64,000 nt of DNA from Escherichia phage SP27, in the sequence record LC494302.1, one strand, 5' to 3'. The translations under genes and the position numbers were made by a program. Numbering within the stretch: position 1 is the first letter of the stretch; every line of letters starts with the position of its first letter. Below, one piece after another: positions 23,978 through 24,715 of this stretch. The notes under the pieces are model-generated. The model ran no database searches. It had not been told where the DNA came from and was given only the letters and a program-made list of their open reading frames with translations.

Positions 23978-24715
23978 TTAGACTGAATTGTTAGGATAAT
24001 ATCTCCCACGTCCCCATATTATTCGCACAGCACCACCACCAGCAGCCGTATAAGAAAAATTATCCCATATACTACCACCACCACCATACATCTTACCAGC
24101 ACCACCACTACCAGCACCACCATTATATGAACCATCGTATCTACCGCCAATACCATTAGCACCTTGAACAATGATACCAGTACCACCACCCGTACCAATG
24201 AACGAGGTATTATAGAATGCACCACCACCACCGCCGCCGCCAGCACCATTTTCACCAGTGATTGCATCTCCGTTACCACCTTTACCAGTGTAGCCACCAG
24301 CACCACCACCAATGACTGCACCACCACTTACACCAGCGTTGCCCCCATTACCACCACCATCATTAATAGCGTTAGCAGCTTTCCCACCTAGTCCACCAAC
24401 CCTATATTCACCAGTGAAGCTAACACATAGTTTTTCAGTTCCACGATATAAACCGTTTTCAACTGCTGTAGTAGTGTTGGGATGTGTAAGAGAAACACTT
24501 AAGTACTCACCACTAGTAACCGGAATATTATTACGCCACGATAAGCCGCCACCAGCACCACGTTGACCACCCGGCGAAATAACACATACTGATATTTCGG
24601 TAACGCCAGCAGGAACTGTAAATTGTGTTGTTCCTATTGTCGTGATTAATTGTTCACCATCTGGCTTATATTCAATTTTATTCCCGTACTTTACCATTCT
24701 TCCAAAAGGTAACAT
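23978..24715 (-). CDS. glycine-rich protein with family R N-terminal module
   Basis: true start MLPFGRMVKYGN at 24715; body is poly-Gly (GGGAGGYTGKGGNG, GGGGGGGAFY), not RCC1-like. Confidence 0.75.
   Translation of the reverse strand: MLPFGRMVKYGNKIEYKPDGEQLITTIGTTQFTVPAGVTEISVCVISPGGQRGAGGGLSWRNNIPVTSGEYLSVSLTHPNTTTAVENGLYRGTEKLCVSFTGEYRVGGLGGKAANAINDGGGNGGNAGVSGGAVIGGGAGGYTGKGGNGDAITGENGAGGGGGGGAFYNTSFIGTGGGTGIIVQGANGIGGRYDGSYNGGAGSGGAGKMYGGGGSIWDNFSYTAAGGGAVRIIWGRGRYYPNNSV

Follow-up and report, generated by a model that had tools for sequence, protein, structure and literature searches.

Organization of the Tagged Gene Array

The stretch analyzed here (64,000 nucleotides; hereafter the window) comes from an Asteriusvirus, an Escherichia coli jumbo phage of ~350 kb with 121Q, phAPEC6, and PBECO4 as relatives. 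Its minus strand carries 12 tandem genes whose products start with MLPF[GATV]RM..Y[GA]N (Table 1), a segment that we call the tag. A degenerate DNA pattern for MLPFxRM, with 0.01 matches expected by chance, matches the window at 12 sites within 18999–32046, every one of them on the minus strand. Eleven of the genes match Pfam RCC1-like models and phrog_4219. The sixth encodes a glycine-rich (Gly-rich) protein, in which glycine accounts for 28.6% of the residues vs. 7–14% in the neighbors. The product starts with MLPFGRMVKYGNKIEYKPDGEQ, contains GGGAGGYTGKGGNG and GGGGGGGAFY, and is 100% identical to 121Q gp243, which is labeled “hypothetical protein” in its record. The first-pass annotation had described an array member with the shared start and upstream cassette but a poly-glycine, non-RCC1 body; the open reading frame (ORF), the quoted strings, and the Pfam results all agree with that description.

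Table 1. Features of the tagged array and of the Gly-rich gene, in window coordinates.
Feature	Position	Strand	Description
Array of 12 tagged genes	17850..32046	-	11 RCC1-like and 1 Gly-rich; DNA pattern, Pfam
Array gene starts	19019, 20207, 21397, 22681, 23905, 24715, 25974, 27194, 28405, 29585, 30796, 32046	-	
Gly-rich virion protein gene	23978..24715	-	Intact ORF, 245 aa plus stop; = 121Q gp243
Tag, codons 1–12	24680..24715	-	MLPFGRMVKYGN; common to 11 RCC1-like paralogs
Body, residues ~20–245	23981..24658	-	Predicted TNF-like beta-sandwich with inserted polyglycine-rich (“brush”) domain; Gly_rich_2 superfamily
Upstream cassette of Gly-rich gene	24716..24786	-	Hairpin 24760–24780 and T-run, promoter-like TATAAT with TTAAATATAG, AAGGAGG ribosome-binding site
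Downstream intergenic cassette	23906..23977	-	Hairpin 23950–23972; ends Gly-rich transcription unit, precedes next paralog

A hairpin/promoter-like/Shine-Dalgarno cassette lies ahead of 10 of the 12 array genes, in the order palindromic hairpin GCCAGTACTnnnAGTACTGGC, T-run, TTTGTATTAAATATAGTATAATGAATAAAGGAGG, and start codon. The 31-nt cassette sequence GTATTAAATATAGTATAATGAATAAAGGAGG, with the hairpin and T-run on its 5′ side, has nine copies at three or fewer mismatches (0 expected), which are confined to the array within the 64 kb and are identical in six cases. The first array gene has a tenth, more divergent copy, and the members starting at 20207 and 29585 have no cassette but keep the tag. 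The cassettes carry TATAAT plus TTAAATATAG. In phAPEC6, a T4-late-like TATAAATA precedes the genes for capsid, scaffold, and baseplate (L021, phAPEC6 135000–184000). With TATAAT in place of a TATAAATA-like motif, the array may not be expressed late and may belong to a temporal class different from that of the capsid and baseplate genes. A generic sigma-70 scan performed no better than on shuffled sequence.

PeSL (promoter-early stem-loop) elements are mobile cassettes of T4-type phages, in which a repeated stem-loop plus promoter flanks variable ORFs. The array cassette is similar in that a repeated unit flanks variable ORFs and might mediate their shuffling. It differs in that the repeat includes the first 36 coding nucleotides and is tied to a protein tag. 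Where genomes of the 121Q type have the Gly-rich gene, PBECO4 has an RCC1-like gene with the same cassette and tag, flanked by the same two orthologous RCC1 genes, and this difference fits cassette replacement.

A mechanical ORF call extends the Gly-rich gene to an in-frame ATG at 24733 (MNKGGS-). We take 24715 as the real start, because the ATG at 24733 falls within the -10/Shine-Dalgarno portion of the cassette and AAGGAGG lies 6–8 nt ahead of the MLPF start in every paralog. The in-frame ATG of the cassette (ATGAATAAAGGAGG..., 24716–24733) is present at the equivalent sites of all paralogs and produces a spurious MNKGG(S/I/N) extension, with which mechanical ORF calls and some database records begin (P0002, P0004, and PBECO4 AGC34972).

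The Asteriusvirus orthologs of the Gly-rich protein are 94–100% identical, with ~20 scattered substitutions relative to the window protein and no obvious hypervariable tips; this comparison covers five Asteriusvirus orthologs and one metagenomic ortholog, had its automatic count spoiled by frameshifts in CMSTMSU, and is uninformative on the tips. In phAPEC6 the gene is intact (244 aa), and the record instead annotates a wrong-frame internal ORF, gp004. The GGN-rich coding keeps a second frame open, such that a 102-aa ORF (VVQSLVVVLVATLV...) spans 24019–24327 on the minus strand of the window (L002 7716–8018); it is this ORF that phAPEC6 lists as gp004. In the CMSTMSU record, the Gly-rich gene is split by frameshifts.

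Fold and Family of the Glycine-Rich Body

An AlphaFold model of the Gly-rich protein based on the family alignment has a pLDDT of 93.8 and a pTM of 0.89. In this model, residues ~20–100 and 215–234 form a beta-sandwich with a long, non-regular glycine-rich insertion between them, which corresponds to the TNF-like sandwich with a glycine-rich lattice domain found in gp24 of cyanophage Pam3. Foldseek searches of the PDB and of viral models concur, with matches that include a “PE-PGRS family protein” of Erwinia phage pEa_SNUABM_47 (TM 0.73). The domain and structure prediction proposed in the first-pass annotation thus yields a TNF-like plus polyglycine fold and not a degenerate RCC1 domain.

At the sequence level, a Pfam scan of the Gly-rich protein found no family at E ≤ 1, while all neighbors tested matched RCC1-like models. 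The protein accordingly has no match at this level to PF21722 (Gly_rich_2) and does not reach its gathering threshold, and a profile search of PDB sequences gave no match. In phmmer, the query matches proteins that carry PF21722 with E-values of 1e-16 to 1e-9 (e.g., P0038), and two proteins (P0167 and P0173) both match the query and pass the PF21722 threshold. This model is matched by 29 of the 94 aligned homologs, and the tagged homologs of Serratia phage BF score 17.9 and 20.2 bits against it, under the 24.3 cut-off. The Gly-rich protein also matches phrog_4474 (E 2e-69). On these sequence relationships, we assign the body to the Gly_rich_2 superfamily as a divergent member.

We found 197 homologs in a large protein database, mostly stand-alone proteins of ~250 aa and many with PF21722, and an exhaustive search of 50%-identity representatives gave 377 clusters. 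The Gly-rich domain is also found as the C-terminal end of long virion/tail-type proteins that hold other cargo types. In a metagenomic protein of 1013 aa that starts with MFELL (P0122), the Gly-rich domain comes after RCC1 propellers of the phage type, and other architectures are three LamG domains with a tail-fiber-type domain and Gly_rich_2 (P0145), a propeller with Gly_rich_2 (P0173), and a discoidin-type domain with the Gly-rich domain (P0125). RCC1, LamG, and Gly-rich domains are therefore co-used in virion/fiber-type proteins, and in Rak2-like phages the same domain repertoire is divided among separate tagged polypeptides. Polyglycine “brush” domains have been named as candidate antireceptors (PMC13243795).

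The Tag as a Separable Module

The 12-residue tag of the Gly-rich protein is 75–100% identical to that of each RCC1-like member, and identity among the tags of all array members is 67–100% (mean 84%). The RCC1 bodies of the array share just 22–43% identity with each other, and the DNA similarity of the Gly-rich gene to its neighbor ends after codon 12. In AlphaFold models, residues 1–10 have a mean pLDDT of 51 in the Gly-rich protein and 53 in an RCC1 paralog, compared with >85 for the bodies, although a low pLDDT at a chain end says little by itself. For most of the 150 distant homologs listed by the exhaustive search, the alignment begins at query residue ~11–32; it begins at residues 1–8 only in a few of the closest relatives and some fragments. 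An MLPF-type start is present in 5 of 93 aligned family members, and ~30 of the 93 have another short leader, M[LIF]E[LMT][LM].

Across genera, P3, F4, Y10, G11, and N12 are kept despite synonymous codon changes (P3: CCA 29, CCT 25; Y10: TAC 32, TAT 13; G11: GGG 20, GGA 19). In Pectobacterium phage CBB (Mimasvirus), the tag is retained in tightly packed genes that lack the Asteriusvirus cassette. Conservation therefore acts at the protein level and is not a by-product of a repeated regulatory cassette. As judged from sequences and models, the tag is a module independent of the body that follows it.

Many Gly-rich homologs of other phages begin with the leader M[LIF]E[LM][LM], as does the RCC1+RCC1+Gly-rich fusion P0122. 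In a contig of ~150 kb, two tandem Gly-rich paralogs of the MLELL type are located just upstream of the terminase and portal genes (L005 9176–10744), and no differently bodied neighbor with an MLELL-type start was found within 10 kb on this contig. This leader may be the analogous tag of another lineage.

Distribution of the Tag Among Jumbo Phages

Rak2-like jumbo phages and metagenomes yielded 117 unique tagged ORFs. Their bodies form ~11 clusters that BLASTP does not connect, and include RCC1, Kelch, Laminin_G_3 (LamG), and Gly_rich_2 types as well as several without assignment. In one protein of 667 aa, RCC1 and Kelch propellers both follow the tag. The view in the first-pass annotation that the N-terminal module is separable and placed on unrelated cargo is upheld by these clusters, by the location of the tag outside the conserved domain in most of the distant homologs listed, and by its low pLDDT in both AlphaFold models.

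Tagged proteins are known from 121Q, phAPEC6, PBECO4, CBB, Serratia phage BF, a GAP32-sized contig, and uncultured contigs, with 10–13 small tagged proteins per Rak2-like genome. In IMG/VR, a degenerate DNA pattern for the tag matches only jumbo-phage contigs of 348–378 kb, namely, 121Q, CBB, Serratia phage BF, one GAP32-sized contig, and two uncultured ones. A further 25 stretches with the pattern, mainly arrays, were found in JGI metagenomes. Genomes of BF-like phages have two tagged Gly-rich genes among tagged RCC1-like genes, and a variant start, MLPFPIISNTN, occurs there alongside the main form. In CBB, the Gly-rich homolog CBB_144 starts with MLPFSPLIVYGN (predicted N-terminal peptide MLPFSPLIVYGNK). 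Starts of the form MLPFxRxxxYGN are also present in nine further proteins (CBB_536, 537, and 548–554) and in CBB_247; the bodies of these further proteins are Laminin_G_3, Kelch, or without assignment. In the sequences compared, the tag follows the phage lineage and not the body. The location of CBB_144 is odd for a virion gene: it lies alone between nrdD and nrdG (anaerobic ribonucleotide reductase), far from the other tagged genes (L003 6001–6765).

Virion Association of Tagged Proteins

Virion MS of phAPEC6 identified eight RCC1-like array members (gp003, 005, 006, 007, 009, 010, 549, and 551; PMC7247149, Table 1). The absence of the Gly-rich protein from this table is uninformative, because the wrong-frame gp004 kept the real ORF out of the search database. 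This annotation error concealed the protein from the phAPEC6 proteome search, and the Asteriusvirus Gly-rich protein itself has had no virion detection so far. Two of its homologs have been detected. CBB_144 was found in the CBB virion by MS with five unique peptides and 34% coverage (PMC5259590, Table 4), and a “PE-PGRS family protein” of Eneladusvirus was detected by LC-MS/MS (PMC7760394), this being the annotation on the tagged Gly-rich gene of BF-like phages.

Among other CBB proteins, CBB_536, 537, 551, and 552 are named as MS-identified and CBB_548, 549, and 553 are annotated as structural (PMC5259590); the supplements of that paper list proteins without peptide-level data, and its paralog pairs are only 536/537 and 549/553. 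The authors expected the components of the CBB whiskers to be among the structural proteins without a GAP32 counterpart (PMC5259590). All six of these proteins (CBB_144, 247, 536, 537, 551, and 552) carry the tag. The putative targeting or anchoring role put forward in the first-pass annotation is supported by the virion proteomics of these phages (PMC7247149, Table 1; PMC5259590, Table 4; PMC7760394), a type of data that is blind to the outside vs. the inside of the particle. In terms of morphology, phAPEC6 has flexible fibers at the capsid hexamer centers and in three sheath rings, and CBB has tail whiskers.

Comparison With Known Fiber and Docking Systems

The predicted body resembles the tail fiber protein gp24 of cyanophage Pam3 (PDB 7YPX) in that both combine a TNF-like and a glycine-rich part; in Pam3, this pair forms the distal, host-recognizing part of the fiber (PMC9608196). 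Sequence identity between the two proteins is 17%. Pam3 gp24 uses a long N-terminal alpha-helical bundle for docking and trimerization and needs the chaperone gp25, whereas the Gly-rich protein has a 12-residue peptide and no helical bundle (its sole helix is at 111–114), and its gene is flanked by RCC1 paralogs and not by a chaperone gene. Polyglycine “brush” domains are known from the “tail wing brush” gp33 and from gp29 (PDB 9D93) of Bxb1, and from S16 gp38, which belong to the tail tips of siphophages or to a T-even adhesin. The glycine-rich domain with a TNF-like module in ALK/LTK (PDB 7LIR and 7LRZ) belongs to a metazoan receptor ectodomain, and the likeness is limited to the fold.

The closest functional analogs of the tag are the docking peptides of receptor-binding proteins. 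In K1-5/SP6, KP32, and KP34 phages, conserved N-terminal peptides of 7–11 residues dock interchangeable receptor-binding proteins (PMC6872550; PMC13352976). A group-specific peptide links exchangeable heads to an adapter in K1-5/K1E/SP6 (hepta- and undecapeptides), KP34 (MALxxLV), and KP32, and the tag is likewise a short N-terminal peptide common to unrelated virion proteins of one phage group. The cargoes differ. In phages of the K1-5/SP6/KP types, a T4gp10-like branching domain at the baseplate bears two to five tailspikes or depolymerases, which are large and trimeric, whereas the tagged set comprises 10–13 small, probably globular heads per genome, with a possible location on capsid and sheath fibers. 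The tagged cargoes are 200–400 aa long, have no enzymatic Pfam domains, and do not correspond to trimeric tailspikes or depolymerases. In a search for the acceptor, a Pfam scan of four baseplate-region proteins of phAPEC6, gp244, gp245 (a giant protein), gp247, and gp248, gave only a sheath-stabilizer match in gp248 and no T4gp10-like branching domain or adapter.

A Possible Docking Role of the Tag

Our inference is that the tag serves as a docking peptide, loading interchangeable binding heads onto the particle, probably on its “hairy” fibers, and we assign this reading a probability of about 0.6. The Gly-rich virion protein would then consist of two independent parts, a flexible, lineage-specific tag (residues 1–12) and a self-contained TNF-like/polyglycine-rich domain (residues ~20–245) of the type that makes up receptor-binding tips in phage tail fibers. 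The tag would plug each ligand-binding head into one acceptor site shared by all of them, most likely on the hair-like fibers of the phAPEC6/CBB capsid and tail, and the virion would thereby acquire a mixed adhesin coat. In Asteriusvirus, each array gene appears to form its own hairpin/promoter-like/ribosome-binding-site unit, and the cassette plus the first 36 coding bases could serve as recombination handles for the swapping of bodies, since each body has such homology at either end.

Several observations stand against parts of this reading. The near-invariant Asteriusvirus orthologs are unlike many primary receptor-binding proteins. Concerning the hairs, proteins of 25–40 kDa alone are too small to form the 119-nm hairs of CBB, and GAP32, which is not reported to be hairy, appears to carry tagged proteins too, given that a tagged RCC1-like ORF is present on a GAP32-sized contig and that CBB_548, 549, and 553 have GAP32 homologs.

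In phage T4, unrelated, fast-evolving internal proteins of a plastic locus share a capsid-targeting leader of ~10 residues that guides them into the particle; this leader has a prohead-protease site at its end and is then removed. The tag could be a sequence of this type that brings its cargo into the prohead, where the cargo would form or decorate the inner body and be injected with the DNA. A short conserved leader on unrelated, fast-diversifying proteins has the same form as the T4 sequence, and the tagged proteins are virion-associated (PMC7247149, Table 1; PMC5259590, Table 4). Moreover, an inner body is present in phAPEC6 and 121Q, and for this structure the phAPEC6 authors put forward the RCC1-like proteins as DNA-organizing candidates. 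However, all identifiable cargo folds are extracellular-type, adhesin-like binding modules. Structures of the Gly-rich domain are known from fiber tips and the ALK ectodomain, and this domain ends long tail/virion-type proteins. The tagged set also coincides with the CBB-specific structural proteins that are expected in the external whiskers (PMC5259590). Unlike the T4 leader, the tag has no conserved cleavage site: a fixed L/I-x-E protease motif is absent, and position 9 is K/N/M in Asteriusvirus and E/Q/K/A/V in CBB, a point that argues weakly. We thus consider capsid targeting unlikely.

Gene conversion of the cassette and initiation region could also have homogenized the start at the DNA level and left 12 residues that have no function as protein. 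The first 21 nt are near-identical in 12/12 window members and six of the nine 31-nt cassettes are identical, a pattern that concerted evolution fits. Such homogenization as the whole explanation is very improbable when the amino acids are kept while codons vary across genera (P3, Y10, and G11), when ten CBB genes, packed or scattered, keep the tag without the cassette, and when the window members at 20207 and 29585 are tagged without it. As for the body, descent from an RCC1 paralog that decayed and drifted to low complexity would agree with its location within the RCC1 array and with the identical tag and cassette. This candidate was rejected and has a negligible probability: BLASTP of residues 16–245 against the 11 RCC1 bodies gave a best E of 6.4, hhalign of the Gly-rich family profile (93 sequences) against the array profile gave a probability of 0.1%, the protein does not match the RCC1 profiles PF00415, PF13540, and PF25390, and the predicted body has TNF-like/Gly-rich fold matches and is not a seven-bladed propeller.

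Returning to the docking peptide, a wider version can be advanced only tentatively. MLPFxRxxxYGN might be a general virion-display address for a single acceptor, repeated at the hexamer fibers and the three sheath rings and open to any tagged polypeptide, with the 10–13 tagged lectin-like heads per genome as the business ends of the “hair.” The result would be a combinatorial adhesin coat reshuffled by cassette exchange, the “DNA condensation” annotation would be wrong, and the twelve residues would suffice for foreign cargo.

Tandem RCC1-like genes are labeled as DNA condensation proteins in dozens of genomes, purely by analogy with eukaryotic RCC1. The tag links this array to a fiber-tip domain, lectin folds, and Kelch propellers, which suggests exchangeable surface binding modules, and the finding that the CBB-specific structural proteins are exactly the tagged ones points in the same direction. 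Displayed binding modules are probably what the “DNA condensation” array encodes, and its members provide concrete candidates for the hair-like fibers of the 121Q/phAPEC6/CBB group. Should the peptide alone prove enough for incorporation, very large phage particles would have a ready-made display tag. Already known are the gene (a hypothetical protein in public records), the family of the fold, and the principle of docking peptides. In the searchable literature, we found no earlier description of the shared tag, of its occurrence on unrelated cargo across several genera of jumbo phages, or of the “DNA condensation” array as displayed binding modules.

Other Features of the Array Region

Array members have inconsistent labels in public Asteriusvirus and Eneladusvirus records, including DNA condensation protein, regulator of chromosome condensation, S-layer protein, Ig domain-containing protein, X-linked retinitis pigmentosa GTPase regulator, E3 ubiquitin ligase HERC1, and PE-PGRS family protein; none of these mirrors a tested function (L001, L002, L023, and L049–L052).

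Products of array decay are present on the minus strand at 20207–20588 and 20588–21397: a C-terminal RCC1 fragment (20218–20346) and other short ORFs lie between two members, and one member is shortened to 269 aa. The 121Q array has split or truncated members (gp234/235, 237, and 239/240) and tagged stubs of 74 and 68 aa. Beside the array, the opposite strand (32149–36548, plus strand) carries a second tandem array of ~20 small paralogous ORFs of 59–77 aa, which share the pattern M..(E/K)(Y/F)Y ... Y..VL.LI.. and correspond to 121Q gp249–265.
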